64,000 nucleotides of DNA from Candidatus Micrarchaeota archaeon (lineage in GTDB: Archaea > Micrarchaeota > Micrarchaeia > Micrarchaeales > CABMGC01), in the NCBI GenBank assembly GCA_028867115.1, contig JAGWGY010000001.1, positions 8,380 to 72,379 on the forward strand. The letters are read 5' to 3'. The position numbers and the translations under genes are program-made. A model generated the notes under the pieces. It had not been told where the DNA came from. It saw nothing but the letters and a program-made list of their open reading frames with translations, and made no database searches. Shown here piece after piece: positions 11,551 through 61,252 of the stretch (within the stretch, counting starts at the first letter, position 1; the number at the start of each line of letters is the position of its first letter).

Positions 11551-11669
11551 GCGTCATACGGCCATAGGAACAGGGAAACGCCCGAACCCTTACCGAACTC
11601 GGAAGCTAAGCCTGTTCACGACATGAAATACTGCCCCTTTGGGCGGGAACGCGTGTTGCCGTCTGGCAC
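11551..11669 (+). rRNA. 5S ribosomal RNA (stand-alone)
   Basis: CGGCCATAGGAACAGGGAAACGCCCGAACCCTTACCGAACTCGGAAGCTAAGCC matches the conserved 5S loop A/helix II-III/loop C region; termini GCGTCATACGGC / GCCGTCTGGCAC pair as helix I; ends +/- a few nt. Confidence 0.85.
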
Positions 11670-28253: not shown

Positions 28254-29888
28254 CTATGGAAAACCTTGGATTGCAACTGCAAAATCAACCCACCCGTCGC
28301 TACCCCCTGCTGTTGGCTCTTGTGATGTTGGTACGTATTTGCAGGTCTTGTCCTTGTAGCTAGGGCAGTAGAACACAAGGGTCTTTGGGGTGTTTGCGCT
28401 TGCTTGGATTGCACTGACAACATTATATGAGACATATAGTATGTTGCCTGTTGAGACGCTGCCTGTTATCTTGGTGTATCCGCTTGGAAACTTGAAGTTG
28501 TCCCATAGGTGGCTGGGAGTTATAGCGGATATGAGAATGTCATTGGCATTGCTAGTTGTGTAGTATGCAAACGCATTAAAGGAACGTGATGTTGCGGCCA
28601 TACTCATTGTGTTTGGTATCTTTGAGTTTGTGTCGAATGGAGTCACGGTATTCTCGCCAGACCAGAGCGAGAGCGATACCTGGTCATCTATGAGCCCTGA
28701 GAGCGGACCGTATGTTACAGATACCTGGTCGTTTGTAAGAGTTCCTGGGACTATGGCGTAATATACTGTCGGATCAACAGATGTGCCATACTGTGAGAAC
28801 GTGAGCTGGCCCTGAGAGTCTGTGACGGACTCTATGGGCTCCCCTGCCTGGTCTGACATGACCAGCACCAGCTCGTCGCTGTAAGTGGTTGTAATCCCTG
28901 TGAAAGTGACCACGTTTGTTGACGGGTTGGTTGGCGGGCTGCAGCACGCAAGCCCTGAATCCCCATACTTGTCAAGCCCAAGTGGCGCTGTGGTTGTGGA
29001 GGTTGAGGAAGTCGTGGAGGAGGTTGTTGACGTGCTTGTAGTGGAAGTTGTCGAAGTTGAAGTTAAGGAGGTTGTGGTGGAGGAGGTTGATGTGGAAGTA
29101 ATGGTGGATGTCGTAGTCGTGGAGTAGAATACTGCAATGATGTTCCCAGGGGATATTGCGTTCACAATCGCGTTCTGGGTTGTTGCAGGTGATACGCTGA
29201 CGCCGCCTGTCGTCGCCCAGCTGGAGAAGAAGTATGAGCTTGGAGGGAGAGCATACACTGTGTAGGGATACCCGTACAGGAGGTGGACCAACACGTTTGA
29301 GGGGTATACTACGCTGTTAAGCACTATCTCCCCTCCGACCGGCAGGGTCTGCAGTCCCGCTAGTACGATCGCGTTGGGCACCATCGGGGATACTTCCATC
29401 GTGGAAAAGCCCGACGTGTAGAGAAGGTTTTGAGGTACAATCGGGAAGTCGCACCCGTCGCTATGGCACAACTCGTAGTTTAGCGTGAATTTCGGACTTA
29501 TCTGCGCCCCCACAGATGCGAGTTGCTTTGGCGCAGTGACGTTGCAGGTTACAACAGAGCCTATAGGCGCATTGTAGGGCAGGCAGACCCCGTTATAAAT
29601 CAGGCCCGAGAACGTGGGGTTCATCGTTATGCCGTTCGATTCGGGGAAGCTTATCGCCCTTCCCAGATTGTTTTTGAAGATTAGGATGAAAGCGGATGCT
29701 GCAGTGTTTGTCATGAATACCGAAGTTCTGCACAAAAGCCTTGTGTTTATGTAGCAGCTTCCTGGAGTCAGGCTTGCAGGATTTCTCACCGTTACCACGG
29801 CGAGTAGGAATGCGAGAAATACGGCAATCGCTAGAAAGGCCCAGGAGTAGGTGAGCAGGAACTCTATAGACGACTGGAGCTTACGCAT
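28254..29888 (-). CDS. large secreted protein with class III signal peptide and Thr/Ser linker, paralog B
   Basis: 544 aa; MRKL-QSSIEFLLTYSWAFLAIAVFLAF; collinear with paralog A; 44-nt identical stretch over the signal peptide (28096-28139 = 29836-29879). Confidence 0.7.
   Translation of the reverse strand: MRKLQSSIEFLLTYSWAFLAIAVFLAFLLAVVTVRNPASLTPGSCYINTRLLCRTSVFMTNTAASAFILIFKNNLGRAISFPESNGITMNPTFSGLIYNGVCLPYNAPIGSVVTCNVTAPKQLASVGAQISPKFTLNYELCHSDGCDFPIVPQNLLYTSGFSTMEVSPMVPNAIVLAGLQTLPVGGEIVLNSVVYPSNVLVHLLYGYPYTVYALPPSSYFFSSWATTGGVSVSPATTQNAIVNAISPGNIIAVFYSTTTTSTITSTSTSSTTTSLTSTSTTSTTSTSTTSSTTSSTSTTTAPLGLDKYGDSGLACCSPPTNPSTNVVTFTGITTTYSDELVLVMSDQAGEPIESVTDSQGQLTFSQYGTSVDPTVYYAIVPGTLTNDQVSVTYGPLSGLIDDQVSLSLWSGENTVTPFDTNSKIPNTMSMAATSRSFNAFAYYTTSNANDILISAITPSHLWDNFKFPSGYTKITGSVSTGNILYVSYNVVSAIQASANTPKTLVFYCPSYKDKTCKYVPTSQEPTAGGSDGWVDFAVAIQGFP
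28989..29123 (-). repeat. low-complexity poly-Thr/Ser coding repeat (linker of paralog B)
   Basis: Translates as STTTTSTITSTSTSSTTTSLTSTSTTSTTSTSTTSSTTSSTSTTT. Confidence 0.85.
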
Positions 29889-36520: not shown

Positions 36521-36609
36521 TGGGCCCAAGGGGATTTGAACCCCTGACATCTGGCTTTCTTACGGATTGATATAAGACCAGCGCTCTAACCAGGCTGAGC
36601 TATGAGCCC
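36521..36609 (-). tRNA. tRNA-Ile (anticodon UAU) with 14-nt intron at 37/38
   Basis: Minus strand GGGCTCA-TA-GCTC-AGCCTGGTTA-GAGC-G-CTGGT-CTTATA[TCAATCCGTAAGAA]A-GCCAG-ATGTC-AGGGG-TTCAAAT-CCCCT-TGGGCCC-A; 4-bp CTTA/TAAG helix flanked by 3-nt bulges (relaxed BHB); no encoded CCA. Confidence 0.8.
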
Positions 36610-48880: not shown

Positions 48881-48908
48881 TTGCCCTACGTATCTCTTAT
48901 GTTCGCTT

Positions 48909-48980
48909 GGGCTCCTGGCGCAACGGTAGCGCGCCTGCATGGCATGCAGGAGGTTGCGGGTTCGAATCCCGCGGAGTCCA
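48909..48980 (+). tRNA. tRNA-Ala (anticodon GGC)
   Basis: GGGCTCC-TG-GCGC-AACGGTA-GCGC-G-CCTGC-ATGGCAT-GCAGG-AGGTT-GCGGG-TTCGAAT-CCCGC-GGAGTCC-A; G3:U70 Ala identity pair; 3' end plus trailer (CGCGGAGTCCAGAC, 48970-48983) is the core of three downstream repeats. Confidence 0.9.
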
Positions 48981-48987
48981 GACCTTT

Positions 48988-49596
48988 TTATTTGGTGAAA
49001 TTTATTGATAGCGTTGCAACTCTAGTAAGGTATGCCTCCCAGGAATCTAAAATTGACGAATTGTAAGCTAAAGTCCCATCTAAATTATTTACAATTATAT
49101 TAGATACTTTACTAGATCCGTCAATCTCTACAACGCCCCTACCAGCTATTGAAAAAACCGACATTGGCACGTAGGGACCTAAGGCGTTCAGTTTTGGCAG
49201 CGGAGGTGCGGGTGAGAATGTGGTATTTATTGGTTGCTTGACAACCCAAGGATAACCGGACTGTGATTCTAAATTTGATAGTTGTACAAATTGTTGAAAA
49301 TATGACCTTGCATCATTATCGTCTGTAAATGCCCTATAGTATACACTTATGTCATCAGGTATTGAATCATTAGAATTTATTCTCATAAGCTGCTGGGTGC
49401 AATAAAAGATTTGCCCGGCGTTTGTTGATGTATTAGTGCAATAGGGATTTATCGAAGCCGAATAATTACCATTAATTATCCCGATTTTTGATAAATCAGG
49501 CAAAGGTCGAGGATGATAACTTAAAAAATTAAAGTAGAAAAGTACTGAAATAATTATTATTGCAATAAGCAAAAATACGATAAGTTTTGGATTCAC
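48988..49596 (-). CDS. membrane-anchored hypothetical protein (AT-rich module)
   Basis: 202 aa; N-terminal TM IVFLLIAIIIISVLFYF; N/S/I-rich composition; a 60-nt line in this gene (49081-49140) has about 30% G+C by my count. Confidence 0.5.
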   Translation of the reverse strand: MNPKLIVFLLIAIIIISVLFYFNFLSYHPRPLPDLSKIGIINGNYSASINPYCTNTSTNAGQIFYCTQQLMRINSNDSIPDDISVYYRAFTDDNDARSYFQQFVQLSNLESQSGYPWVVKQPINTTFSPAPPLPKLNALGPYVPMSVFSIAGRGVVEIDGSSKVSNIIVNNLDGTLAYNSSILDSWEAYLTRVATLSINFTK

Positions 49597-49655
49597 ATCA
49601 TCAACTAAATTTTGCGTTTGAATATATAAACCTATAAACTATTATATAAAACACC

Positions 49656-50234
49656 ATGTCAACAAAAACATTCAGATACATCGTTTCCATTTTTAGTATA
49701 TTCATTGGATTATTCTTCGTGCAATCTTCGCCAAATTACAATGTTCTGATTTTTATTTTGGGTATTTTGCTAATAATTGGCGGCGTGATAGTCTCTTTGG
49801 GAACGAGCAATAAACTTGGTGGCTGGCTAGTTATCATTGGGGGGATAATATATTTGTTGGGAAAAGGGCCTGGCATCTTTAGCTCGTTTCCATATTGGCT
49901 CTCAGTCTACGGGCAACCAAATTTATTGTACATGTTTTATAATTTTGGTCAATTAATAGCACCATTCGTCATTGGTGTATTGGTACTCTGGAAAAAATCC
50001 GCAGCGTTTAGGATACTTGGGGGCAGTCTATCTATATTGCTCTTTATCTGGTTAAATATATTCTATAATGGGTTTAGTCCTGGTTGTAAAGCGCCAGATG
50101 TTATGGTGTGGCTGCTAAATTGCTTCTCCGTATATTATGCGTGGGTTTTATTTTTACTCGGGGGTATTGTGATTATTTTGGCAGCTTGTAAACCCATTTT
50201 TAAGCTATTTACTACTAAATACTATCAAAAATAA
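49656..50234 (+). CDS. polytopic membrane protein (AT-rich module)
   Basis: 192 aa, about 6 hydrophobic helices; stop codon lies inside repeat R1 left arm. Confidence 0.5.
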   Translation: MSTKTFRYIVSIFSIFIGLFFVQSSPNYNVLIFILGILLIIGGVIVSLGTSNKLGGWLVIIGGIIYLLGKGPGIFSSFPYWLSVYGQPNLLYMFYNFGQLIAPFVIGVLVLWKKSAAFRILGGSLSILLFIWLNIFYNGFSPGCKAPDVMVWLLNCFSVYYAWVLFLLGGIVIILAACKPIFKLFTTKYYQK

Positions 50235-50280
50235 CCCCAACCCGACGTGGGAAGTTCGCGGAGTCCAGACTTTCTATTTA
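50221..50280 (+). repeat. tRNA-Ala 3'-end-derived direct repeat R1 (att-like)
   Basis: ACTATCAAAAATAACCCCAACCCGACGTGGGAAGTT-CGCGGAGTCCAGAC-TTTCTATTTA; core 50257-50270 identical to 48970-48983. Confidence 0.8.
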
Positions 50281-52478
50281 ACTGTTGACATTTCAGCCAA
50301 CCTACTAAGCAATTGCTGCACATCCTTCGTGCCGTGGAGGTTGAACCGCGCATACGACTGTGCCATCCCTACCCTTATAGAATATGCGCTTTTCGGCAGT
50401 GACTTGAACGTATCCTCGTCAGTATAATCATCGCCTATCGCAAGAATGAAATCGGGGCTGTGCAAATTTATGAAATGCGCCGCTGCTACGCCCTTGTTGA
50501 CGCCTGAGTTCTTAACCTCGATTATCTTGTTCCCCTTACACACCTGTACATCCGCGTTTGCGGTAATCTTACTGAGATTGTCAAAAAGTTCTGAGACTCT
50601 GAGTGATGCAAATTCCGATTCAGACTTTCTATAGTGCCATACAATAGAGAATTCCTTCTCTTCTACAAACGACCCTGGCAGCCTACCTGCGTAGTCGTTT
50701 ATTATGGGCATTATCATCGGCTTCCATTCTGCCGTCAGCGGTCTAATGAGGCGCCAGTCTGCGCCGCGTTCTTTTATAAAAACTCCGTGCTCGGCAACCA
50801 ATGAAACGCCGATTCCCGAAAACCATTTGTCTAGCGTAGCCTTGTCCCTCCCGCTGGTCACAACGACCTCGTTTTTAGGGTCGCTGCACAGTGACCTTAG
50901 CATGTCAAGGGTCTGCTTTGTGGGCGACGCTTTCCTAGGTTCCTCTGTGAATGGGACCATCGTTCCATCGTAATCCAGCAGCAGGAGTGCCTTCCCGGCC
51001 TTCCCATGGTCGGACAGCAAGGCGGCTTCATTGCCGCCAAGAAGCTTTGCATTGAAGACTTCCTGCATCTCCTTAAGCTTTGCAAGCTCCTTCATGAAAT
51101 CATTCCCCCATCTTACTATGTCATATGACCTCACCCTCTCCTGCATCGCAATCATTCGGCGCATCTGCTCCTCTATGGGCATGGTGAGCGCCGTTTCCAG
51201 CGCATTGCATATCTCGCCGGGGTGGTTTGGGTTGACCATCACCGCTTCCCCGAGTTCTTTGGATGCTCCGGCCATCTCGCTGAGCACGAGAACGCCGGGG
51301 GATTCTAGCTTGCTTGCAACATATTCTTTTGCGATAAGGTTCATGCCGTCACGCAAAGGCGTCACCAATGCCACATCTGCCATATTAAATAGAGCGGAAA
51401 GGGTGCTCGAATCGAGGAACCTATACTGATATGTGATAGGTGCCCAGTCGATTGCACCGAACCTGCCGTTTATTCTCCCTACCTTCTCATCGATCGCCAT
51501 CTTCAGCTTCTTGTATTCCCTGACTCCCTCCCTTGATGGCACGACCACTAGTACAAGGCGGACCCTTCCCCGCATCTGCGGGTGCCTCTCCAAGAAAAGA
51601 TCATAGCCGTTTAGCCTGTTCAGGATTCCCTTTGTGTAATCCAGCCTGTCTATCGAGAAGATTATCTTCGCATCACCTATGCTCTTTTTGAGTTTGTCCT
51701 TCTCCTTTGCGACAGAATCGCTCCTGGAGAGCGCCTGCAAATTGCCGAAATCTATGCCCATTGGGAATGCATCAACCCTCTTTAGCTCGGAGTCCGGCCC
51801 CTCTATGTATCCAAGATTGCTGTCATATCCTAGCAACCTTGAGACGCTAGTCACAAAATCCTGCATGTAATCGTACGTGTGGAACCCTATCAGGTCTGCG
51901 CCCAAAAGCCTCGACAGCAGAGCCCTGCCCCATCCGCCCGGCAGGAGCCTGAAGACTTCATAAGACGGGAACGGTATATGCAGGAAGAATCCTATCCTTG
52001 CTTGCGGCCTGCGCCCCTTTAGCATGGCGGGCAGCAGCATCAGGTGGTAGTCGTGGATCCAGACAATGTCGCCAGGCTGCACGATGCCGGCCACTTCCTC
52101 GCAAAACCGCTCGTTAACCTTGCGGTAGGCTTCCCATTCGTCATCGTCGTAATTGGCGTACTCTGTAAAGTAATGGAAGAGTGGCTGCAGGGTGCTGTTG
52201 CAAAAGCCGTTGTAGAAGCCCTCATAGTCCTTTTCGGCAAGGAAGACCGGGGAACATTTGGACTTGCCTGCCATCCTCCTTATGTCCTTCCTGTCGCTAT
52301 CGTCATCAAATACCCCGCCCGGCCACCCCACCCAGAGGTAATCATCGATTTTTGCAGCCTTGAGATAGGATTTTATTCCACTTGCAAGCCCTCCAGCCGC
52401 TTCGGAAACGGCGATCTTCCCATCAGGGCCCTTTGTGAAAGATAGCGGCAGCCTGTTGGACACTATTATGTACCTCAT
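50274..52478 (-). CDS. bifunctional trehalose-6-phosphate synthase/phosphatase (OtsA-OtsB fusion)
   Basis: GT20 motifs [39 protein letters not shown]; C-terminal [12 protein letters not shown] ... [10 protein letters not shown]; ATG 52478 preferred (GTG 52487 in ORF track). Confidence 0.9.
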
Positions 52479-52500
52479 CCATGCCACCGTCGCACTTTTC

Positions 52501-52524
52501 CTGAGCCAGAACTATCTGGCTCAG
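52501..52524. other. perfect 10-bp inverted repeat (hairpin) between the DUF1059 stop and the ots start
   Basis: CTGAGCCAGA-ACTA-TCTGGCTCAG; overlaps the stop codon at 52521-52523; 22 nt upstream of the ots ATG on the minus strand. Confidence 0.7.
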
Positions 52525-52694
52525 GCGTCCTTTATTGCAGCGCTGACTTTTGCCTTAGTGGCATCATCAAGCTGCGCCATGTTGTGGGCGACCCTGGCAT
52601 GGTCTGCGATCTTCGGCATCAGCTCCTCCACAGTTGCCCCCTCTGCCGTAAAATCACATGCAAAACCTATGTCCCTGCACACAAACTTCTTCAT
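52521..52694 (-). CDS. DUF1059-like small protein
   Basis: 57-aa ORF below the ORF-track cutoff, hand-translated: MKKFVCRDIGFACDFTAEGATVEELMPKIADHARVAHNMAQLDDATKAKVSAAIKDA; matches the DUF1059 pattern (F-x-C-x-D-x-G-x-x-C-x-F ... H-A-x-x-x-H). Confidence 0.6.
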   Translation of the reverse strand: MKKFVCRDIGFACDFTAEGATVEELMPKIADHARVAHNMAQLDDATKAKVSAAIKDA

Positions 52695-52760
52695 GACAAT
52701 CGTAAGGCTTGGCGAATCGGACGTATATATCGCTTTTCGATCTGGGACAGAATTGCGCGC

Positions 52761-53174
52761 TCAGCCGAGCAGCATGTCTCGCATCTTGAGCAGCGCCAGG
52801 TACACCTGGCCGTCGTTGCGGAGCCTCTCTATGCTCTTGTAACCGAGGTGGATCCCGCTGATGGAGGAGAAAAGCGTGAGCATATATGACATCCCCCTGT
52901 TGCTCATGCCCATAAGCTGCTGCACCAGGAGTATTATCAGCTTCTGCTCAAGGTCCAGGCTCGGCTTCCTGCCCCTTCCCAAACTTGGCCTAACCGATAT
53001 CGATGCGTCACGTATTGTTGGCATGAGTATCCTAATGGTCTTCTTTATCTGGCTTGACCTTTTCTGCCTATAAGTCCTCCAGTCGCTTATTGCATACCTC
53101 GGAAGCACCCGCTCCCTGACTATGGACTCTATCTCGCATAGCAGCGCGTTGATGCCTATCAGAGCTTCTTCCAT
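52761..53174 (-). mobile_element. IS-type transposase N-terminal (HTH) fragment, catalytic domain absent
   Basis: 137 aa; GRGRKPSLDLEQKLIILLVQQLMGMSNRGMSYML resembles the HTH region preceding DDE domains in IS4/IS5-like transposases; ORF stops after it. Confidence 0.4.
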
Positions 53175-53269
53175 GGTTCCTATGCGCTAGGAAAAATTAA
53201 ATTAGTTATGTCCAAATGCGCGGCAAGCAATGCATAAACTTTTATGATTTTGGCTGGATAATAGAATCG

Positions 53270-54187
53270 ATGCAGATGCCTGCTCAAAAGCCAAACCCCC
53301 ACATCGGGTACTTCGTTCTATTCCTAGTCGCGCTCGCACTGGGCATATCCCTAGCGCTGCTCTCCGGCAAGGTGCTTGCGGGGGTGGGCATAACCTCGCC
53401 TCAGTATCTGGAGTATGCTGATATCCTCATAACCGTGGCGTTCGGCTATGCCGCGCTCAAGCTGCTCTCAGATTCGATAATCGAGTATGGGAAGAGGAGG
53501 CCGCGGATAGACGAGAGGCTGCTAGCAAAAGTCGTGCGCATCATAGGGTATGTGATAATAGTGCTGTTGGTGATGTCGATCTTTAGGATAGACCTGACCG
53601 GGGTGCTGATAAGCGCGGGCTTTTTGGGCATAGTGATAGGTCTTGCTGCTCAGTCCACATTGGGCAACCTCTTTGCAGGCATCTCGATGATGGCCGCAAA
53701 GCCGTTTGCCAACGGGGACAGGGTAACTTTCTCCTCATGGCAGTACGGCGCGCTGCCCCCATCCTACGCACACAGGTTCCTCAGGCTTGGCTTTTCAGGC
53801 ATCATAGAGGAGATAGACCTTATGTATACGAGGCTGAGGCAGGATGACGGCACAGTGCTGTATGTGCCAAACGGCGTGATGAATGGCGCGGCAATAATAA
53901 ACTACTCGGTATCTGATGTCATAGACGTGAATTTCAGGCTTGAGCTCCCTCTGGAGGCCGACTTTGCGTCTTTTAGGTCAAAAGTGCTCAAGGAGATTGA
54001 CAGGCACAGCAGGCTTCACAAGGCCATAAAGGGAAAGCCCGAAGTCATAATAACCGACATAGCCTCACAGATGTACGGGGTGGATGTGATAGCTAGAAGC
54101 GAGATACGCAGCGAAGCGTACGTAAAATCCGAAATAGCTGCTATCGTGCTGCGCATAGCCTCAAAAACCATGGAGGGGGGAAAATAG
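53270..54187 (+). CDS. mscS: small-conductance mechanosensitive channel (MscS family)
   Basis: Three TM helices then LGNLFAGISMMAAKPFANGDRVTF; start at ATG 53270 (ORF track 53216). Confidence 0.8.
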   Translation: MQMPAQKPNPHIGYFVLFLVALALGISLALLSGKVLAGVGITSPQYLEYADILITVAFGYAALKLLSDSIIEYGKRRPRIDERLLAKVVRIIGYVIIVLLVMSIFRIDLTGVLISAGFLGIVIGLAAQSTLGNLFAGISMMAAKPFANGDRVTFSSWQYGALPPSYAHRFLRLGFSGIIEEIDLMYTRLRQDDGTVLYVPNGVMNGAAIINYSVSDVIDVNFRLELPLEADFASFRSKVLKEIDRHSRLHKAIKGKPEVIITDIASQMYGVDVIARSEIRSEAYVKSEIAAIVLRIASKTMEGGK

Positions 54188-54204
54188 GGAATACGAACAG
54201 CATT

Positions 54205-54272
54205 TACTATCAAATGATATCAAAAATAACCCCAACCTGACGTGAGAGGTCCGCGGAGTCCAGACCTTTTTA
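54205..54272 (+). repeat. tRNA-Ala 3'-end-derived direct repeat R2 (att-like)
   Basis: TACTATCAAATGATATCAAAAATAACCCCAACCTGACGTGAGAGGTC-CGCGGAGTCCAGAC-CTTTTTTAA; core 54252-54265. Confidence 0.8.
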
Positions 54273-54318
54273 ACCCAAAAGCTTAAAATATCATAACTGA
54301 CGTAATATTAGTGACTAA

Positions 54319-54528
54319 ATGGGCAGAAAATACACGATAATCATAACCAAGGGAGAAGTCGCATATGTCGCTTATTGTGAGGAGCTCGGAATAGCGAGCC
54401 AGGGAAAGAGCGTAAAGGAGGCAAGGAAGAACATAAAGGAGGCAATAGAACTATACACTGAAGAGGCAAAAGACTCGAAGCTCGCTAAGTCAGCTTTGCC
54501 CATAGTGACAACGATAAGCGTGGGATGA
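54319..54528 (+). CDS. hicB: HicB-like antitoxin (UPF0150 fold)
   Basis: 69 aa; YTIIITKGEVAYVAYCEELGIASQGKSVKEARKNIKEAIELY. Confidence 0.65.
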   Translation: MGRKYTIIITKGEVAYVAYCEELGIASQGKSVKEARKNIKEAIELYTEEAKDSKLAKSALPIVTTISVG

Positions 54529-54532
54529 TGAG

Positions 54533-54760
54533 ATGGGCAAACTTCCCATCGTTTCGGCGCTAGATGTTGTAAAGGTGCTCAGAAAGAACGGCTTTAGCAT
54601 ATCAAGGCAGAGGGGAAGCCACATAATACTTATAAAATTTGTTGATGACAAGAAACGGATAGTTGTCGTCCCTAACCACAGGCAGATTGACCCTGGTACA
54701 CTGCTTTCCATAATAGCCCAATCTGGCATGCTAAAAGACGAATTCCTTGATTCTTTGTGA
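54533..54760 (+). CDS. hicA: HicA-family mRNA-interferase toxin
   Basis: 75 aa; VVKVLRKNGFSISRQRGSHIIL...VVVPNHRQIDPGTLLSIIAQSGM. Confidence 0.75.
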   Translation: MGKLPIVSALDVVKVLRKNGFSISRQRGSHIILIKFVDDKKRIVVVPNHRQIDPGTLLSIIAQSGMLKDEFLDSL

Positions 54761-54773
54761 GGATGATAACATT

Positions 54774-54832
54774 CACTACCAAAAATAACCCAAACCTGAC
54801 GTGGGAGGTTCGCGGAGTCCAGACCTTTTTAT
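54774..54832 (+). repeat. tRNA-Ala 3'-end-derived direct repeat R3 (att-like)
   Basis: CACTACCAAAAATAACCCAAACCTGACGTGGGAGGTT-CGCGGAGTCCAGAC-CTTTTTAT; core 54811-54824. Confidence 0.8.
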
Positions 54833-54865: not shown

Positions 54866-55087
54866 TTAATTACAGTTTGAGCGAGTTGGTGAGGAGAATT
54901 TTGGATAGCTATAATTGAACAGTACAACATTGTGAAAATTACATTCTAGTTCTTGTGTTGTCAAAAACACCGCGTAAGCATATGCCGTTTGAATACCATA
55001 AATGTATTTGGTCATAATATAATTTGAGTAGATTCCAGATATTACGAGCACCAATGATACTGCCAAAAATATCCCGTAAGCAGACAT
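54866..55087 (-). CDS. small membrane protein, last gene of pilus operon
   Basis: 73 aa; N-terminal hydrophobic helix; abuts the upstream gene. Confidence 0.4.
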   Translation of the reverse strand: MSAYGIFLAVSLVLVISGIYSNYIMTKYIYGIQTAYAYAVFLTTQELECNFHNVVLFNYSYPKFSSPTRSNCN

Positions 55088-55471
55088 TCAATCACCAACT
55101 TCAATGCAGAGCGTGCTATTCCTTTTGCCATAATAAATACATGTTTGTACCAAAGGTGAGTTGACATAGCCTAAGCTAATATTAGGTGCCTTTGCTGCAA
55201 TATTTACTTTGTATAATTTGTTATATATCAGAAATAAGTTGCTTAAACATGTAGAATTACTTGATGATAGGTTCTCAACACATAACTTCGTAGAGCCATT
55301 AAAATCTAGCTGATTGATAAGATCATATATGGCAAAGTTGCTTATCAATGCACTCTTCTGTGTAAAGAGGGTTAAAGTTGCAGAGTTCATGGCATTGGTA
55401 GTATAAGTAATAGCAAAAATTGCCAGCAAGATAGAGGTAACTGATTCGGCCACTGCAAATTGCGCCTTCAT
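55088..55471 (-). CDS. pilin-like protein (degenerate class III signal)
   Basis: 127 aa; MKA-QFAVAESVTSILLAIFAITY. Confidence 0.5.
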   Translation of the reverse strand: MKAQFAVAESVTSILLAIFAITYTTNAMNSATLTLFTQKSALISNFAIYDLINQLDFNGSTKLCVENLSSSNSTCLSNLFLIYNKLYKVNIAAKAPNISLGYVNSPLVQTCIYYGKRNSTLCIEVGD

Positions 55472-56737
55472 TTAAGCACCTTTTACGTTAATATAGGATC
55501 CAAGGTATTGAAGAGTCATATTTTCTATGCTAAGCCCATTAAAAGATGCATTTATGATGTATGAGAAAGGATATTGTGAGTAGCAAGTATAATTCTCTAT
55601 GTTGAAGGTACAGCCTTTGCCTAGAATTCCTGAGCTATTGAGCAGCTTATTTACTGTATTAATGTAGCTAAATCCCATGGATTCCAAAGCAGATGCGATA
55701 TCTGGCGAGACTTCTGATCCATTGTACGCACTAAGTTGGGAATATAGGGAGTTCTTATCGGATAGGTATGCCTGATAATTTGAGGAATTTACGGGTGAGA
55801 TCCCTTTGGGACCATCGAGGAAGTTTTGGTTTATTTGTTGTGCAATACCGCTCGCATTCTCTACTGACGCATTTCCTACATCCAGATTGTTTAATGTAAG
55901 CCTGCTGGATTTATTGTTCGAGATATTAGAGCGGATAGTAAAATTTTCTGAGGCTAATTTCAAAGTGAAGTTATAATGCAACGAGGCGCCTGCTTGCCCA
56001 GCGGACATATCCTGGTAGCCACTATCTACAGGGATAAAGCAGTAGGTTTCGGTATAGTAGCTACTTGTTTGGTAACAAACGTCTGAGAATACTGATACCG
56101 ACCACTCTCCACCAGAACCGCACTGTTGTCGTGTAGGCCCCCACCCATTTGCATAGGTACAGTGGGAGAATACCTGCATTTGAATTATGTTGCCGGCATC
56201 TAATAGTGGATATACGTATGACTCGTTTCTATTTAGTATAGTCGCTGTTAGCTGATTAGTCTGCAGTTGTATACCTTGTTTAGTTCCATAGGTGGAATAT
56301 GTAGTGTTTATTGTTCTTCTAATGTTATTGCACGTGGTCGTCGAATTTACGCTTATTTGGTTATACCCCATATTAAGAGGAGTAAAATAGATATCAAAAA
56401 CCTCAATGCCGCTTAAGGTGGAATTTAGCGAATCTTGTGAAAAAAGTACAGATTTAGAGATAAAATTTAGTCTTATTGACCCATTACACCCATATGCAAC
56501 GAGCCGCATTATGTTTGGGTTATCAAGAACTGCGCTCTGTGGTACAAAAACCCTTACCTCCATATTCTGCGGGTAAATAATTTGTGGACCGTATGTAGAT
56601 GCGTTAAAAGAACTAAAATTATTGAACTTAGATTGGTTAGAATGGATCGTTTGGCTGTAAGATGAGACCATTATAACAATCAGTACACTTATCGTGCTTG
56701 CAGCAAGTAGGAACTCTACACTAGCCTGCATTTTCAT
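55472..56737 (-). CDS. large pilin-like protein (class III signal plus about 390-aa N/S/T-rich domain)
   Basis: 421 aa; MKM-QASVEFLLAASTISVLIVIMV. Confidence 0.6.
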   Translation of the reverse strand: MKMQASVEFLLAASTISVLIVIMVSSYSQTIHSNQSKFNNFSSFNASTYGPQIIYPQNMEVRVFVPQSAVLDNPNIMRLVAYGCNGSIRLNFISKSVLFSQDSLNSTLSGIEVFDIYFTPLNMGYNQISVNSTTTCNNIRRTINTTYSTYGTKQGIQLQTNQLTATILNRNESYVYPLLDAGNIIQMQVFSHCTYANGWGPTRQQCGSGGEWSVSVFSDVCYQTSSYYTETYCFIPVDSGYQDMSAGQAGASLHYNFTLKLASENFTIRSNISNNKSSRLTLNNLDVGNASVENASGIAQQINQNFLDGPKGISPVNSSNYQAYLSDKNSLYSQLSAYNGSEVSPDIASALESMGFSYINTVNKLLNSSGILGKGCTFNIENYTCYSQYPFSYIINASFNGLSIENMTLQYLGSYINVKGA

Positions 56738-57101
56738 GACTTAACACCAGGATTATGCTCTTTCCATTTAGAGTGACTATTCGGCAAACCCCCATAGTTT
56801 CACAGCCAGCTGGAGAAGAGTTGGAAAGCTGTAGGATTTGCGATTGTATCAGGTTTTCTGAGGAGTAATTACTAATGAAAGAAATTAATCCAGAATTATT
56901 TTCTGGATAACTATCGATAACAGAAGCGATTATCTGCGAGATAGTGTAGAGCTTGAGCTGCATCACACTGTTTGTGGAAAGAGAGGATAACGAGAGCGTT
57001 TGCATATGCCAGGTGTAAAGTAATAGAAGCACTGCTGTCGAGACTATTGGCAAAGAGATAGTAAGATCTAGTGAAATGAGTGCACCAATAATTTTTGACA
57101 T
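56721..57101 (-). CDS. minor pilin-like protein
   Basis: 126 aa; MSKIIGA-LISLDLTISLPIVSTAVLLLL. Confidence 0.45.
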   Translation of the reverse strand: MSKIIGALISLDLTISLPIVSTAVLLLLYTWHMQTLSLSSLSTNSVMQLKLYTISQIIASVIDSYPENNSGLISFISNYSSENLIQSQILQLSNSSPAGCETMGVCRIVTLNGKSIILVLSHENAG

Positions 57102-57310
57102 GAAATCAACCTTAAATCAACTACACAACTGGCACACGAGGCGGCCAATTCTTCGGTATATGTAGCAGCGCTACAGGACGCATTCTTTTCAATCCCAATA
57201 ACTTTAGTTGCTCCAAAGTGGAGTTTTGAGAGCAGCAACAGCGAGGATAATGCAAATAACATAACTATTGACATACCTACAATAACCTCTAAACTAATCT
57301 GAGCTCGCAT
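57068..57310 (-). CDS. type IV pilin-like protein (QxSxE)
   Basis: 80 aa; MRA-QISLEVIVGMSIVMLFALSSLLLL. Confidence 0.6.
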   Translation of the reverse strand: MRAQISLEVIVGMSIVMLFALSSLLLLSKLHFGATKVIGIEKNASCSAATYTEELAASCASCVVDLRLISCQKLLVHSFH

Positions 57311-57693
57311 TACGACACCCTGTTTAGTATGTAATATTCTCCCTTGTAGGAAATGCTTAGGACCGATCCCCCTCCATCAGGACAAAATACCCCCTTAGGG
57401 ATAGAAATGCCATCTGCAATGCTTAGATTTCCATAAATTGTGGAAAGGACGCCAGATTTCACGTATGCACTGCACATCCCGCTTGGGAGATATGCCGAGA
57501 ACTCCTGGTAGGCTACTCCTGTGAGTGCTGCAGAGTTTAATTTAGAGACCATGGATGAGACCTGGTATTCACTGAGCAGGTAGGTGACGTGCACCATCCC
57601 AACACGTAGCGTGTTTGCAATGAACAGCAGTGATACGCCCGAGAGGGAGATGTAAGCAAGTACCTCAAGTGAGAGCTGCGCCCTCATCATCAC
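57310..57693 (-). CDS. type IV pilin-like protein (QxSxE)
   Basis: 127 aa; MMMRA-QLSLEVLAYISLSGVSLLFI. Confidence 0.6.
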   Translation of the reverse strand: MMMRAQLSLEVLAYISLSGVSLLFIANTLRVGMVHVTYLLSEYQVSSMVSKLNSAALTGVAYQEFSAYLPSGMCSAYVKSGVLSTIYGNLSIADGISIPKGVFCPDGGGSVLSISYKGEYYILNRVS

Positions 57694-57944
57694 TACACCA
57701 CATTAGATGAAAGCGAGGATAGCTCATGGGATATTGCACCGGATATGCTCATGTTGCTCCCATTTACCATTATATTTGAAGTCGCGGCACCTTTCAGCTT
57801 CACCACCATGGCCAAGGCTATCGCTATTACAAGACTAGCCGCTGCAAGCATCATTATGTACTCCAATGATCCTTGCCCCTTCTTTGACCTCGCCACTGCG
57901 AGCAACGCTTTTGCTTCCAAAAGGAATCTTATTCTATTTTCCAT
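57693..57944 (-). CDS. small type IV pilin (candidate major pilin)
   Basis: 83 aa from internal ATG 57944: MENRIRFLLEAKALLAVARSKKG-QGSLEYIMMLAAASLVIAIALAMVV; the longer ORF-track form overlaps the upstream gene. Confidence 0.6.
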   Translation of the reverse strand: MENRIRFLLEAKALLAVARSKKGQGSLEYIMMLAAASLVIAIALAMVVKLKGAATSNIMVNGSNMSISGAISHELSSLSSNVV

Positions 57945-57952
57945 TTTCCCAC

Positions 57953-58606
57953 CTATATTACATAAGAAGAAAAGCCAAAGGATGCAGATTGCAATGCATA
58001 TGCTATGCCCGCTAAGGGGGCAACATATTGCAGAATCTCGGAAATTCGTAGCCAAGGCTTGATTAGGATTCTGTTTATGCAAAGGACAATTATGATGTAG
58101 AGCATGCTTATCGATCTTATACCCCATGTCGTCACGGCTTTGCCAGTTCCAATCAATGAGCTGGAAGCTATACTTGATGCAATTCCGCTGAATAATGGGA
58201 AGAAAAGGATTACACCTATCACTGACAGTGTCTGCATCCCACTTACTTTGGCGTTCATCATGTTCCTAAGTTCGCTCTTCTGCAATTGTAAGGAGTGGAA
58301 ATCTTCCAGATTTTTCTCTATTTCAACCCCATTAGATGCACCTAAATGAAGTATTTTCAGAAGATTGTACATTTCCGCCCCGAATTTTTGTGGTATTTCT
58401 GCGCCAAAGTCGGACATCCTCCAACGTTTTGCGAGAACACATAGTGTTTCGTATTTAACATCATTAGAGACTGCCGCCTCGAGCGCCTTTATTGCAGAAT
58501 GCGAGGCCCTATAGTTATAGAGTACGCTTGAGCTGAGGGAGATTATTTCGGACAGGCTATCGCTATTTGCATTGATTAATACGGATGATCTAGACCACAT
58601 TTTCAA
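57953..58606 (-). CDS. pilus platform membrane protein, half 2 (single T2SSF/TadC-like domain)
   Basis: 217 aa; helical cytoplasmic N-part then 3 TM segments; follows half 1 with a 17-nt overlap. Confidence 0.5.
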   Translation of the reverse strand: MKMWSRSSVLINANSDSLSEIISLSSSVLYNYRASHSAIKALEAAVSNDVKYETLCVLAKRWRMSDFGAEIPQKFGAEMYNLLKILHLGASNGVEIEKNLEDFHSLQLQKSELRNMMNAKVSGMQTLSVIGVILFFPLFSGIASSIASSSLIGTGKAVTTWGIRSISMLYIIIVLCINRILIKPWLRISEILQYVAPLAGIAYALQSASFGFSSYVI

Positions 58607-59276
58607 TTAATCTCCTCGATAACGCAGTAACGCTTGTAGCATAGACAAAAGGCAGTACAATTAACAGCCCAATTGACAACCCGATAAGGCTAATGCTCGT
58701 TTGGCTGATAACAGTCGAACCAATATACCCAAAAATGAGAAATGAGGGCAATATTGCCGATAAAAACATGCTAATTGTAGAATAGCGCTGAATGGAATCT
58801 GATGCTGTTGATAGCCGCGCCTTTCGTTTTTGTAAAGAGGAGACAACAAATCTGCTTACTTTATCATATAAATCTCCAGAAGTGGGGATTGTGTTTTCAC
58901 CCCCAATAACCTCTATGAATTCTGCGTTTATTGCATTAAGGAGCGTATCCCCCAGGCGGATCCTGTTCTTTATCCTAATTAGGTTTGGTGGGCTGCTTGC
59001 CCCGAAAGACCTTTCTACCATCTCTTTTGAGGTTGCATTGCGATATTTGTAATAGATGATAGAGGATAGGAACTGCAGGACTTGGCCTTTAAGTATTGCT
59101 TTTTGGTAGAGGTCTGCAAGCAATCCCATGGCCCTTAACAGGAATAGCAGGAGAAATGCGCAGATTAGGAGGATATCGGTTTCAAGAAAGAGGCTTGTTA
59201 TCCCATTAATTACGACTATCAAAAAACAGACTAGGAGCGAAAGTGCAAGTGCGCTAATTAATTGATGATATTTCAT
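58590..59276 (-). CDS. pilus platform membrane protein, half 1 (single T2SSF/TadB-like domain)
   Basis: 228 aa; TM-helical-TM topology; ATGA overlap with the ATPase gene. Confidence 0.5.
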   Translation of the reverse strand: MKYHQLISALALSLLVCFLIVVINGITSLFLETDILLICAFLLLFLLRAMGLLADLYQKAILKGQVLQFLSSIIYYKYRNATSKEMVERSFGASSPPNLIRIKNRIRLGDTLLNAINAEFIEVIGGENTIPTSGDLYDKVSRFVVSSLQKRKARLSTASDSIQRYSTISMFLSAILPSFLIFGYIGSTVISQTSISLIGLSIGLLIVLPFVYATSVTALSRRLIENVV

Positions 59277-60766
59277 TTTTGTAACCCATATTGGTGTATA
59301 TATTCTACCAGTTCGATGGTAGCTGTAGTACCGCCAGACAGCTTCTTTAGGAAATCTGCGCGCTTTCGGAGCTCCTTGAGCGCCTGTGATTTAGAAACTG
59401 ACTTTTTCTTTGAATAGACTTCAATAATTTTTGATTCTGAGAGTGCTTTTTGATCGACTGCGGCATTTAAGGCCACCTCATTTGTGCTTAGCATATCATC
59501 ACCGATTTTTATGCCCCCTCCGAGAATTTCTGCCCTGCTTAGCCATTTGTACTCTGTAATCCCTGTTACCAATCGTGATCCGAACCCATTATGGGTCATC
59601 TGTACGGATATATCTAGAGAACTTAATGACTCCTGCTGCACGCTCATCGGATTAACCATGAGTCGCTTTATTACAGATATTCCCGCCTCGCTGCTGTGGA
59701 TAGTTGCTAGGAAAGGAACGCCAAAGTTTGCGCCAGTGAAGAGTTCCCGCGTCTCTTCGCCACGCAGCTCCCCGACCACCAGAAGGTCTGGGCGCATCCG
59801 AAGCGAGTTTATTACCTGGGACCTAACGTCCACACCTTTCCCGTGCCTGAACCCATTCAAAGCGACTACGCTCTGCACATTGGGATAGAACTTGAGCTCG
59901 TTTACGTCCTCCTCTATGGTTATAACCCTGCTGTGTGCTGGCGCTAATGCAATAAGAGAGCTGAGTAATGTCGTTTTGCCGCTTGCTGGCGCGCCGGAAA
60001 TAAGAATGCTTGCGCCACTCTCTATTGCAATCCACAAGTAAGCTGCAGAATCATAATTGATAGTAGAGGTTTGCAGCAAACGAACGATGTTGGACTCTTT
60101 CCTCCCTCCCATCCTTATTGTGGCACATGCCCCGTTTACAGCATAAGGCCTAAGCTGTGCGTGGATCCTAGCATCTGCTACCTGGACATCTATTACAGGA
60201 GTTGACTCGTTTATTTCAGCATCGCAATCGTAGATTAGCCTATTAATGGCACTGCGGAATTCTGTCTCTCCGCAAAATTGCAGATTTGTGACGCACCTGC
60301 CATATTTTGAGTGGTAGATTGAGATCGCAGAAGTTGGGGAGTTGATTTCTATTTCCTCTATATTGACCTTATCCTCCATCAGTATCCCGATAGGCCCATA
60401 GCCGATGGTGTCGTGTGCAACAATCTCTGCGAGTTTTCTGGCATTTTGAAAAGGCATGGCAGAGGAGAGTTCTGCGACTGCAATCTGCTTTGCACGCTCA
60501 AAATCTTCAGGAGTTATAGTACTTTTTGAAGAGAGTTCGTCCACTACTCTCCCTTTTGCAAAACCGGCTGCTTTAATCTCTGATTGTGCAAACTGCGCCT
60601 GGTCATATCCCACGAGATACTGTGGAATTTTTCCAGTGCGGCAAATACAGCGTTTAATCGGAAGGTCTACTACCTCTTCTATAGGGCCATGTTCTGTGGA
60701 ATAAATCGAGAATCCAAGTTTAGAATAAGGTTTGGGCTTCTGCGGTTCTTTTCTGAACGAAAACAT
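59273..60766 (-). CDS. type IV filament assembly ATPase (GspE/VirB11/ArlI-PilB superfamily)
   Basis: 497 aa; Walker A ISGAPASGKTT, Walker B/Asp box PDLLVVGELRGEE, His box ATIHS. Confidence 0.85.
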   Translation of the reverse strand: MFSFRKEPQKPKPYSKLGFSIYSTEHGPIEEVVDLPIKRCICRTGKIPQYLVGYDQAQFAQSEIKAAGFAKGRVVDELSSKSTITPEDFERAKQIAVAELSSAMPFQNARKLAEIVAHDTIGYGPIGILMEDKVNIEEIEINSPTSAISIYHSKYGRCVTNLQFCGETEFRSAINRLIYDCDAEINESTPVIDVQVADARIHAQLRPYAVNGACATIRMGGRKESNIVRLLQTSTINYDSAAYLWIAIESGASILISGAPASGKTTLLSSLIALAPAHSRVITIEEDVNELKFYPNVQSVVALNGFRHGKGVDVRSQVINSLRMRPDLLVVGELRGEETRELFTGANFGVPFLATIHSSEAGISVIKRLMVNPMSVQQESLSSLDISVQMTHNGFGSRLVTGITEYKWLSRAEILGGGIKIGDDMLSTNEVALNAAVDQKALSESKIIEVYSKKKSVSKSQALKELRKRADFLKKLSGGTTATIELVEYIHQYGLQK

Positions 60767-60785
60767 TTACTATAACACCATTTTG

Positions 60786-60797
60786 ATTATTTAAGTA
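60786..60797 (-). promoter_or_regulatory. TATA-like element for the pilus operon
   Basis: Minus strand ACTTAAATAAT ends about 20 nt upstream of the ATPase ATG (60766); extremely A/T-rich 150-nt region. Confidence 0.4.
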
Positions 60798-60925
60798 AAT
60801 AATATTTATTATAATATACATAATAAGATTTATATAGCTTGCGAAAAAAGTTTCCTGAAAGTAAAAGTATTTTCCACGGCGGGCCCCGAATATATCTTTA
60901 TAAAACTTCACGGAGATGTATTATC

Positions 60926-61252
60926 ATGGCAGGCAGAGAGAAGGAGAAAGACGAGATATGGAAGGTGCGCAAACTCCTCAGCAGACCCAATTATGCCGTG
61001 CTAAAGCTGCTCATGGAAAAGTCCCCAAGGACAACCCGCGAGCTCTACCAGAAGCTCGGGACCCATTTCACAAGAAAGACGCTAATCATAACGCTGCGCG
61101 ACCTCTCGATGCAGCTAAACGTGCTCCAGCCGACGCACATACGCACGGACAGGGGATACGGCCTGGGCTACAGCATAAACCCAAAGCTGAAGGAGGTCAT
61201 AAAGTCGGTTGAGAAGTTCGAGAAGGTCGTCGAGTCGCTAGGAGACAACTAA
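60926..61252 (+). CDS. winged-helix transcriptional regulator (ArsR/TrmB-like)
   Basis: 108 aa from ATG 60926; NYAVLKLLMEKSPRTTRELYQKLGTHFTRKTLIITLRDL. Confidence 0.55.
   Translation: MAGREKEKDEIWKVRKLLSRPNYAVLKLLMEKSPRTTRELYQKLGTHFTRKTLIITLRDLSMQLNVLQPTHIRTDRGYGLGYSINPKLKEVIKSVEKFEKVVESLGDN

Follow-up and report, generated by a model that had tools for sequence, protein, structure and literature searches.

The operon and its gene content

We analysed a 64,000-nucleotide (nt) stretch of contig JAGWGY010000001.1, from the Candidatus Micrarchaeota archaeon assembly GCA_028867115.1 (the whole stretch is referred to below as the window), and focused on a group of genes at 54866-60766 that an earlier reading of the letters alone, the original prediction, had taken for a type IV pilus operon. 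An ATPase, a T2SSF platform and subunits with class III signals were all found among these genes, and our analysis indicates that they probably form a type IV pilus-like filament at the Micrarchaeota cell surface. Both the homologues and the loci in which they occur identify the host as a member of the Micrarchaeota (DPANN), in keeping with the suggestion that the DNA came from a small-genome archaeon. The ten genes, g1 to g10, are given below with lengths in amino acids (aa); here and throughout, a slash within a motif marks the predicted cleavage site of a class III-like signal.

59273..60766, minus strand: g1, 497-aa ATPase for pilus assembly, secretion-ATPase superfamily (PF00437 match, 5e-23)
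58590..59276, minus strand: g2, platform half with a divergent single T2SSF domain, 228 aa (PF00482 matches in orthologues)
57953..58600, minus strand: g3, second platform half, 215 aa, start ATG at 58600 (PF00482 matches in orthologues)
57693..57944, minus strand: g4, predicted major pilin, 83 aa, ...SKKG/QGSLEYIMML (PF04021 match, invariant motif)
57310..57693, minus strand: g5, minor pilin-like protein, ~125 aa, M(M)(M)RA/QLSLEV (conserved motif)
57068..57310, minus strand: g6, minor pilin-like protein, 80 aa, MRA/QISLEV (49 orthologues with M[KR]A/Q[IL]SLE)
56721..57101, minus strand: g7, pilin-like protein, 126 aa, with the degenerate signal MSKIIGA/LISLDL (55 orthologues)
55472..56737, minus strand: g8, large pilin-like protein, 421 aa, MKM/QASVEF (class III-like N-terminus, AlphaFold2 model)
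55088..55471, minus strand: g9, minor pilin-like protein, 127 aa, MKA/QFAVAE (55 orthologues with MKA/QFA..E)
54866..55087, minus strand: g10, small membrane protein, 73 aa, MSAYG followed by a transmembrane helix (positional conservation)

These open reading frames (ORFs) are co-oriented on the minus strand and run head to tail from 60766 down to 54866. The junctions from g1 to g10 measure -4, -11, +8, -1, -1, -34, -17, 0 and 0 nt, most of them being overlaps or direct abutments, and the tightly packed ten-gene operon that had been proposed is present as described. A ribosome-binding site of the GGTG type lies 4-11 nt 5' of most starts; it is clear for g1, g4, g5, g6, g8, g9 and g10 and weaker for g2, g3 and g7, and the best Shine-Dalgarno site in the operon (AGGTGG) is found 4 nt 5' of g4. 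The same DNA is annotated by NCBI as contig JAGWFY010000005.1 of the metagenome-assembled genome (MAG) GCA_028867695.1, where g6, g7 and g10 are uncalled.

Assembly ATPase and split platform

The Walker A box (GAPASGKT), the IEED and VGELRG boxes and the His box of g1 are invariant in 27 homologues. Foldseek searches with an AlphaFold2 model of g1 (predicted local distance difference test (pLDDT) score 82) retrieved afGspE (2OAP; TM 0.68, full length) first, followed by FlaI and then CpaF. The PF00437 match, the invariant catalytic boxes and this shared fold bear out the assignment of g1 to the secretion ATPases.

For the platform genes, the T2SSF family (PF00482) was matched by 13 of 33 g2 orthologues (best E 1.7e-5) and 16 of 33 g3 orthologues (best E 3.3e-6), and was by far the most frequent Pfam family among them. 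A profile of the g2 family matched PilC (3jc8, E 0.0026) and GspF (2vmb, E 0.031) in the PDB, and alignment of g2 with g3 by hhalign (probability 96.4%, E 1.2e-9) indicates that the two are paralogues. Because of this paralogy, the T2SSF matches of the orthologues and the PilC/GspF profile matches, the claim that the operon encodes two separate single-domain platform proteins stands.

Pilin-like subunits

The g4 product, named by NCBI as a class III signal peptide-containing protein, matches Class_IIIsignal (PF04021) with 25.3 bits against a gathering cut-off of 23.7; we take this family to be the former DUF361. Across 30 orthologues, Q24, S26, L27, E28 and Y29 are invariant, the residue at -1 is Gly or Ala and that at -2 Lys or Arg, and an NGT/NxS sequon is conserved. 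The predicted mature part of ~59 aa is Flp/Epd-like, without a globular domain. A g4 profile search gave at least 120 matches, of which all the named ones derive from Micrarchaeota or other uncultured-archaeon MAGs; no protein of 'Ca. Mancarchaeum acidiphilum' Mia14, an archaeon of the same phylum, is among the matches listed. A text search of the literature for the g4 pilin motif gave nothing relevant.

The motif MKA/QLSLE is kept in 75 orthologues of g5, a gene whose start is ambiguous (57693, 57690 or 57687) and which is present in every variant of the operon, including a short g1-g5 form described below. In the 55 orthologues of g7, K..(L/I)ISLD(L) is conserved and precedes a hydrophobic helix. 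This protein is likewise pilin-like, in addition to the five N-termini listed in the original prediction, and its cleavage site as written above is a prediction from the motif. Those five (KKG/QGSLEY, MRA/QLSLEV, MRA/QISLEV, MKM/QASVEF and MKA/QFAVAE) are all seen and are conserved in the orthologues. The g9 protein carries five N-glycosylation sequons.

The large g8 protein has the N-terminus M[KR][IML]/Q[TA]S[LV]EF across 58 orthologues, with a hydrophobic residue (I, L or M) at -1 that is conserved and non-canonical. Its AlphaFold2 model (pLDDT 78) consists of an N-terminal helix (residues 4-39), beta-sandwich domains and a helical hairpin, and Foldseek searches with this model found generic macroglobulin/Ig-like domains only. 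There are 20 N-x-S/T sequons and eight invariant or near-invariant Cys residues. These features fit an exposed subunit of the adhesin type, and we regard the fast-diverging g8 as a candidate for the tip subunit or adhesin. Only 12 proteins were retrieved in a g8 profile search. At the end of the operon, a small ORF lies 3' of g9 in 47 of 55 loci, and ~35-40 of these, counted by eye, start with MS[FA]YG and continue with a hydrophobic helix. Because this ORF recurs after g9, we regard g10 as real; its orthologues are below HMM (hidden Markov model) detection, their sequence similarity being too low.

We scanned the 449 six-frame segments of at least 60 aa in the whole window for the motif [KR]-x-Q-x-[SA]-x-[ED] with 20 hydrophobic residues after it. 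Six occurrences were found, which makes the motif specific within the window; four are in the operon and two in a tandem pair of genes elsewhere:

26523-28148, minus strand: 541-aa protein with the class III-like N-terminus M[GR]KL/QSSIEFLL
28254-29888, minus strand: 544-aa protein with the class III-like N-terminus M[GR]KL/QSSIEFLL

The two proteins are 66% identical to each other, have Leu at -1 and long S/T-rich linkers, and neither matches a Pfam family. Only the N-terminal motif is common to this pair and g8. They may be substrates of the pilus system that are encoded in trans, a link suggested by that motif, or else components of the surface layer.

Conservation and divergence across the Micrarchaeota

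The closest homologues of g1 are 41-54% identical to it and nearly all of the named ones are from Micrarchaeota. A locus scan with one genome per species gave 80 loci, 74 of which are titled as Micrarchaeota lineages, and we counted architectures by searching the six-frame ORFs of 84 loci iteratively with HMMs. The commonest architecture has a divergent gene, here called 'up', in opposite orientation to g1 g2 g3 g4 g5 g6 g7 g8 g9 and is complete in 34 loci, while g1-g9 with small variations occurs in ~50 of the 84. Upstream housekeeping genes (eIF-2 beta, eIF-1A, RIO1, ERCC4, S8e and ornithine carbamoyltransferase) are alike in loci L001, L002 and L004; L003 has another upstream neighbourhood. 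This recurrence of the gene order beside the same housekeeping genes indicates that the operon is an inherited chromosomal part of the Micrarchaeota and no recent island.

In one subclade the operon stops after g5 and is followed by unrelated soluble proteins, from which it follows that g6-g9 are absent or encoded elsewhere in these genomes. This short form is seen in L004 (13484-15786), L012, L020, L025, L027, L028, L030, L034 and L036 type loci; in L004, the one locus of this form that was inspected in detail, two paralogous soluble proteins of ~355-384 aa come after g5.

Comparison of the window with its relatives L002 and L007 gave identities of 52-54% for g1, 27-39% for g2 and g3, 34-40% for g8 and 71-79% for g4, against 78-83% for ornithine carbamoyltransferase, 72-81% for a FAD/NAD reductase and 89-93% for the 108-aa 'up' protein. 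The pilus machinery thus diverges faster than its neighbours, a pattern obtained by comparison with L002, L006, L007 and L008. All close relatives are also mutually divergent in g1 (52-67% identity), which argues that the machinery is fast-evolving across the clade and that the window is no isolated replacement. The identity of g4 to its relatives overall (60-81%) is above that of the ATPase g1, and a pilin that is better conserved than its ATPase is unusual.

The operon has a G+C content of 42.1%, as opposed to 51.0% for the remainder of the window, and the sequence lines starting at 55201 and 59401, which the original prediction had singled out as AT-rich, do measure 20% and 30%. G+C at third codon positions (GC3) is 0.34-0.54 in g1-g10 versus 0.63-0.76 in the window's housekeeping genes, the gene directly upstream included, and this gap locates the difference in silent sites. 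Over 41 loci, however, the mean difference in G+C between operon and flanks is ~0, indicating that the dip is no general property of the system, and a GC3 deficit of ~0.2 is confined to the window, L002 and L007, the latter two being the closest relatives. AT-richness is therefore confined to a small clade and had been given too much weight as a feature of the system. Recent horizontal transfer was considered as a simple cause of the low G+C and rejected, since the operon lies in conserved synteny, the GC3 deficit is common to L002 and L007, and the close relatives are mutually divergent in g1. An older allele replacement within this small clade may be the source.

The divergent upstream gene and promoter region

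The start of the operon faces a gene on the other strand across a short intergenic region:

60926..61252, plus strand: 'up', 108-aa basic protein, probably winged-helix, head-to-head with g1
60767..60925, no strand: AT-rich divergent promoter region with two conserved TATA-like boxes (8-mer counts)

The head-to-head arrangement of 'up' and g1 recurs in 76 of the 84 loci, and 'up' is 65-91% identical across the phylum versus 42-54% for the ATPase that it faces. Its GC3 of 0.75 is native. Of 25 'up' orthologues examined for helix-turn-helix (HTH) domains, 10 gave weak matches to HVO_A0114, 4 to HTH_20 and 3 to the ArsR-type HTH_5, and 'up' is a candidate regulator of the operon. The intergenic region has a median length of 153 nt and 31% G+C in 68 loci, with TTTATAAA, TATATAAA and AAGGTATA as its commonest 8-mers. 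In the window, GCAAGCTATATAAATC lies ~60 nt 5' of the g1 ATG and TTTTATAAAGATATAT beside 'up'; we interpret these two archaeal TATA-like boxes as predicted promoter elements. A scan for sigma-70 promoters, which has no relevance for an archaeon, was at chance level.

The 3' flank and other features of the window

The last 22 nt of a tRNA-Ala gene (48908-48981), together with bases downstream of it, recur at 50256, 54251 and 54810-54831. These copies of the 3' end sit in a family of 67-nt repeats (D1, D2), the last of which approaches the operon:

54761..54831, no strand: last tRNA-Ala-derived 67-nt repeat copy (repeat families D1, D2)

This copy stops 34 nt short of the stop codon of g10, where the operon has its 3' end. 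Both the repeat and the 34-nt distance had been noted correctly in the original prediction; it is the 3' end that the repeat abuts and not, as stated there, the beginning. A terminator-like hairpin with a T-run lies in the last repeat (minus strand, 54812-54791), directly after the operon. Between the repeat copies are a first cassette of two AT-rich genes, a second with a trehalose-phosphate synthase/phosphatase, a DUF1059 protein, a 137-aa ORF and an MscS channel, and a third with a putative HicAB toxin-antitoxin pair, in which a Pfam match was obtained for the HicA half only. These repeat-bounded segments look like serial site-specific integration cassettes at tRNA-Ala; no integrase was seen among them (48908-54831). 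We rejected the pilus operon as a part of the cassettes, since it lies outside the repeats, which fall in the interval from the tRNA to the operon's 3' end.

The two genes directly after tRNA-Ala (48988-50234) occupy a stretch of 35% G+C with a GC3 of 0.29-0.38; they encode a 202-aa secreted-looking Asn/Ser-rich protein and a 192-aa protein with six transmembrane segments and no Pfam match. Elsewhere in the window are a 5S rRNA gene at 11554-11667 on the plus strand and an 89-nt tRNA at 36521-36609 on the minus strand, which ARAGORN read as Tyr with the anticodon ATA; the length of the latter suggests an intron or a misread anticodon.

Relationship to known type IV filament systems

Accounts of the Epd clade and its link with the Tad pili (Makarova et al. 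2016, PMC4858521; Denise et al. 2019, PMC6668835) characterize it by a pair of platform genes with one domain each, by short pilins and by a dedicated EppA peptidase (arCOG02300) that has nine transmembrane segments and is often encoded in the locus. In the core order of Epd/Tad loci the platform genes come first, and the ATPase and a second ATPase of the TadZ/FlaH/MinD type follow (PMC6668835). The pilins of Methanococcus maripaludis have Gly-1, Gln+1 and Glu+5 without the Tyr+6 that belongs to the defining motif of Flp pilins (PMC3875500). In a 2026 preprint, Sivabalasarma and Albers report 'System 1' (Makarova clade 1) in DPANN archaea. The possibility that the operon is a genuine member of this Epd-like/Tad clade, with an EppA-type peptidase encoded elsewhere, has points in its favour, although we regard it as doubtful.

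The likeness that the original prediction saw to Epd/Tad systems holds for the pilin and the platform. As in the Epd pili of M. maripaludis, there are two adjacent platform genes with a single T2SSF domain each, a PF04021 (DUF361) pilin with Gln+1 and Glu+5, sequons, and several minor pilins of 125-155 aa; the major pilin is very short in both (74 aa, 62 mature, for MMP1685 and 83 aa, ~59 mature, for g4). Resemblance to the Tad/Flp system extends to the split single-domain platform and a Flp-like pilin of ~60 residues with a predicted cut after Gly, Gln+1 and the Glu+5-Tyr+6 pair. The likeness does not hold for the order of the genes, in which g1 precedes both platform genes, or for the accessory components: no second-ATPase family of the TadZ/FlaH type was found among the ten products, and no EppA-type peptidase with nine transmembrane segments either among the window's ORFs of at least 120 aa with several predicted membrane spans or in the annotated flanks of the relatives. 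In addition, g4 carries the Tyr+6 that is absent from Epd pilins, and the leaders of g5, g6 and g9 have three residues ending in Ala, as opposed to 5-13 ending in Gly in Epd. The system differs from Tad/Flp in having no secretin, TadZ, TadV or TadE/F pseudopilins, in the archaeal N- and C-terminal extensions of g1 and in belonging to a single-membrane cell. Nor is a split platform exclusive to the Epd/Tad clade, since split tadC genes also occur in many loci of the non-Epd archaeal clades 2 and 4B (Makarova et al. 2016, PMC4858521).

The affinities of the ATPase are mixed, with afGspE-like and CpaF-like families at roughly the same distance from it. By sequence, the best PDB match of g1 is afGspE (125 bits), which extends to the C-terminal YIHQY/YIHAY, and afGspE is also the best structural match, over ~500 columns and including a C-terminal extension that is absent from CpaF. 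Over 258 shared columns the g1 family is 33% identical to afGspE, 29% to CpaF, its second-best solved relative, and 28% to FlaI, whereas afGspE and FlaI are 46% identical to each other; g1 does not fall within that pair. A four-point bootstrap placed the g1 family on the side of CpaF against afGspE and FlaI in 424 of 500 replicates, a grouping that supports Epd/Tad membership but may be due to long-branch attraction. In a search of 1.84 billion representative proteins the g1 family stood apart as ~40 clusters, with an even mix of afGspE-like and CpaF-like sequences as nearest outgroups. Some of the representatives with good scores against g1 (P0264, P0275, P0290-P0292, P0294 and P0301) have 820-1600 aa with two or three ATPase stretches and are closest to CpaF; these may be fusions, or adjacent genes merged in gene calling.

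In the euryarchaeal clade 2 ('System 2'), which includes afGspE, many loci likewise have two tadC genes. This clade has as its signature a duplication-prone class III minor pilin, arCOG02911, which is all-beta and large at 250-550 aa (PMC4858521); its description fits g8 and the 541/544-aa pair, a likeness by description only. No match to a major pilin of the PilA type (archaeal pilin N-terminal domain), however, was obtained here. A parallel in content is found in Mia14, which has two pilus loci: a clade 1 locus (MIA14_0170-0177) with a CpaF-family ATPase and two TadC proteins, and MIA14_0252-0260, assigned to the 'euryarchaeal group' and not to the Epd group (PMC5498576). The latter starts with an ATPase, TadC and a 'component', continues with several class III pilins and closes with a class III 'component' followed by a pilin, an order that mirrors the present operon when matched by published annotation and not by sequence. 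This architecture also counts against Epd/Tad membership, as does the only peptidase reported for Mia14, which is FlaK-like. Key pilus components are common to many Micrarchaeota according to Golyshina et al. 2017 (PMC5498576). The type of locus looks like one already known at annotation level; the Mia14 account is one of annotation, without the phylum-wide synteny, divergent regulator or pilin motifs.

Taken together, the system is a Micrarchaeota-specific, fast-evolving branch of the archaeal type IV pili, in which the traits of the pilin and platform are Epd/Tad-like and the ATPase has the architecture of archaeal GspE/FlaI. A bolder proposal, which we consider unlikely, is that this is a separate, phylum-wide and vertically inherited pilus lineage, neither Epd/Tad nor euryarchaeal clade 2, that would serve as the main host-contact organ of the Micrarchaeota. 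Such a mosaic system would combine a Flp-type G/QxSLEY pilin, a fissioned platform and an ATPase of afGspE/FlaI architecture under the control of an ultra-conserved winged-helix protein, and its large subunits with a hydrophobic -1 residue would either reflect an unusual peptidase specificity or be membrane-anchored.

Proposed mechanism and alternative functions

Our analysis covers gene identities, conservation and motifs, and most of the steps proposed here are drawn from the general working of type IV filament systems. From these we infer how the subunits would be cleaved and assembled, which roles they play, how the operon is regulated and what it is for. The products of g4-g10 would be inserted into the membrane by their N-terminal hydrophobic helix, and an A24 class III signal peptidase encoded elsewhere would remove the leader before Gln+1, as expected at least for g4, g5, g6 and g9, in which position -1 is occupied by Gly or Ala. 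A hexamer of g1 would dock on a platform of g2 and g3, the two halves being equivalent to one PilC/ArlJ-type protein, and ATP hydrolysis would lift pilins from the membrane into a helical fibre. In this fibre g4 would be the bulk subunit, a Flp/Epd-like helix of 59 aa with a conserved N-glycosylation sequon, and g5, g6, g7 and g9 would prime assembly and carry g8 at the tip. The latter, a large, cysteine-rich and heavily glycosylatable beta-sandwich protein, is the likely adhesin. The very conserved divergent winged-helix gene probably controls the operon. Attachment to surfaces, in a biofilm or to a host cell of the Thermoplasmatales type would be its likely role.

A number of observations weigh against this reconstruction. 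The copies of g2 and g3 in the window have no Pfam match, and their platform identity comes by way of the orthologues. The division into major and minor subunits is made by analogy. Neither g8 nor the 541/544-aa pair has a canonical prepilin cleavage site, and because Met, Leu or Ile occupies -1 these proteins may stay uncleaved. The HTH matches behind the regulator reading of 'up' are weak, and the literature searched contained neither expression nor proteomic or imaging data on a Micrarchaeota pilus. Finally, no A24 peptidase was found in the 64-kb window in a screen of ORFs of at least 120 aa with several predicted membrane spans only. The polytopic ORFs of this screen without obvious assignment were a DUF373 protein, a DUF3566 protein and the 192-aa protein; a fourth (53216-54187) encodes the MscS channel, which NCBI annotates with PF00924. 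As a cryptic peptidase the 192-aa ORF with six transmembrane segments (49656-50234) was rejected, having no Pfam match and a single Asp. The annotated flanks of four loci contain no A24/EppA peptidase either. That the window encodes no prepilin peptidase, as originally predicted, agrees with this screen, but the weight placed on it was overstated: such an absence is ordinary in archaea, and the single, FlaK-like A24 peptidase of Mia14 is encoded at a distant locus (Golyshina et al. 2017, PMC5498576).

The machinery may, alternatively, be a pseudopilus or a display system similar to the bindosome, in which a stub of g4 anchors or presents g8 and the 541/544-aa proteins at the surface or S-layer. 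The Bas system of Sulfolobus is a bindosome that displays sugar-binding proteins. Such a function would accommodate the several large proteins in the window with the same N-terminal motif, two of which are encoded 27 kb away; there is also a weak match to the bindosome ATPase model BasE (85 bits), and the preprint of Sivabalasarma and Albers (2026) argues that class III signal proteins often functionalize such machineries. We nevertheless consider it improbable, because none of the large proteins matches a substrate-binding family, g4 is of the filament-forming Flp/Epd type and the most conserved structural gene, and the BasE match is far under the cut-off of 1000.

A competence-type pilus for the uptake of host DNA or nucleotides is very unlikely. 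The operon resembles the Gram-positive comG operon in its order of ATPase, platform, major pilin and ~four minor pilins, there is a weak match to a ComGA model (7.8e-17), and a speculation by Golyshina et al. has Mia14 exchanging DNA by means of its type IV pili (PMC5498576). The similarity in gene order may, however, be convergent; the ComG platform is a single gene, the ATPase is of a different family, with the archaeal GspE/FlaI architecture and not that of ComGA, and no ComEA, ComEC or DNA-binding components were seen in or beside the operon in four annotated loci, although the genes of the DNA receptor and channel lie elsewhere in competent bacteria. The chance that the operon is an archaellum or its degenerate remnant is practically negligible, as the original prediction also held: Joint Genome Institute pipelines label several homologues as 'flagellar protein FlaI' and FlaI is the top NCBIfam model by score, but at 149 bits this score falls short of the equivalog cut-off of 550, no archaellin (PF01917), ArlH, ArlF/G or ArlC/D/E matches were obtained among the ten operon products, the platform is split, the filament protein is just 59 residues long, and it is housekeeping genes that flank the operon in L001-L004.

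Implications for Micrarchaeota biology

Micrarchaeota are genome-reduced DPANN archaea that are attached to, or dependent on, Thermoplasmatales hosts, and to our knowledge the mode of this attachment is not known. As a predicted surface machine that is conserved across the phylum, the operon characterized here is the best candidate for a Micrarchaeota attachment organ. It provides concrete targets for further study in the form of the pilin g4, which may be approached with antibodies, proteomics and cryo-electron tomography, the candidate adhesin g8 and the divergent regulator. The current picture of type IV filaments is unchanged by this system, which fills in one lineage. An archaeal pilin with the full Flp-type Glu5-Tyr6 in combination with a split platform does, however, bear on the proposed archaeal origin of the Tad pili, and if these genes represent a separate pilus lineage, the system would be a mosaic near the split that later gave rise to the Epd and bacterial Tad pili.

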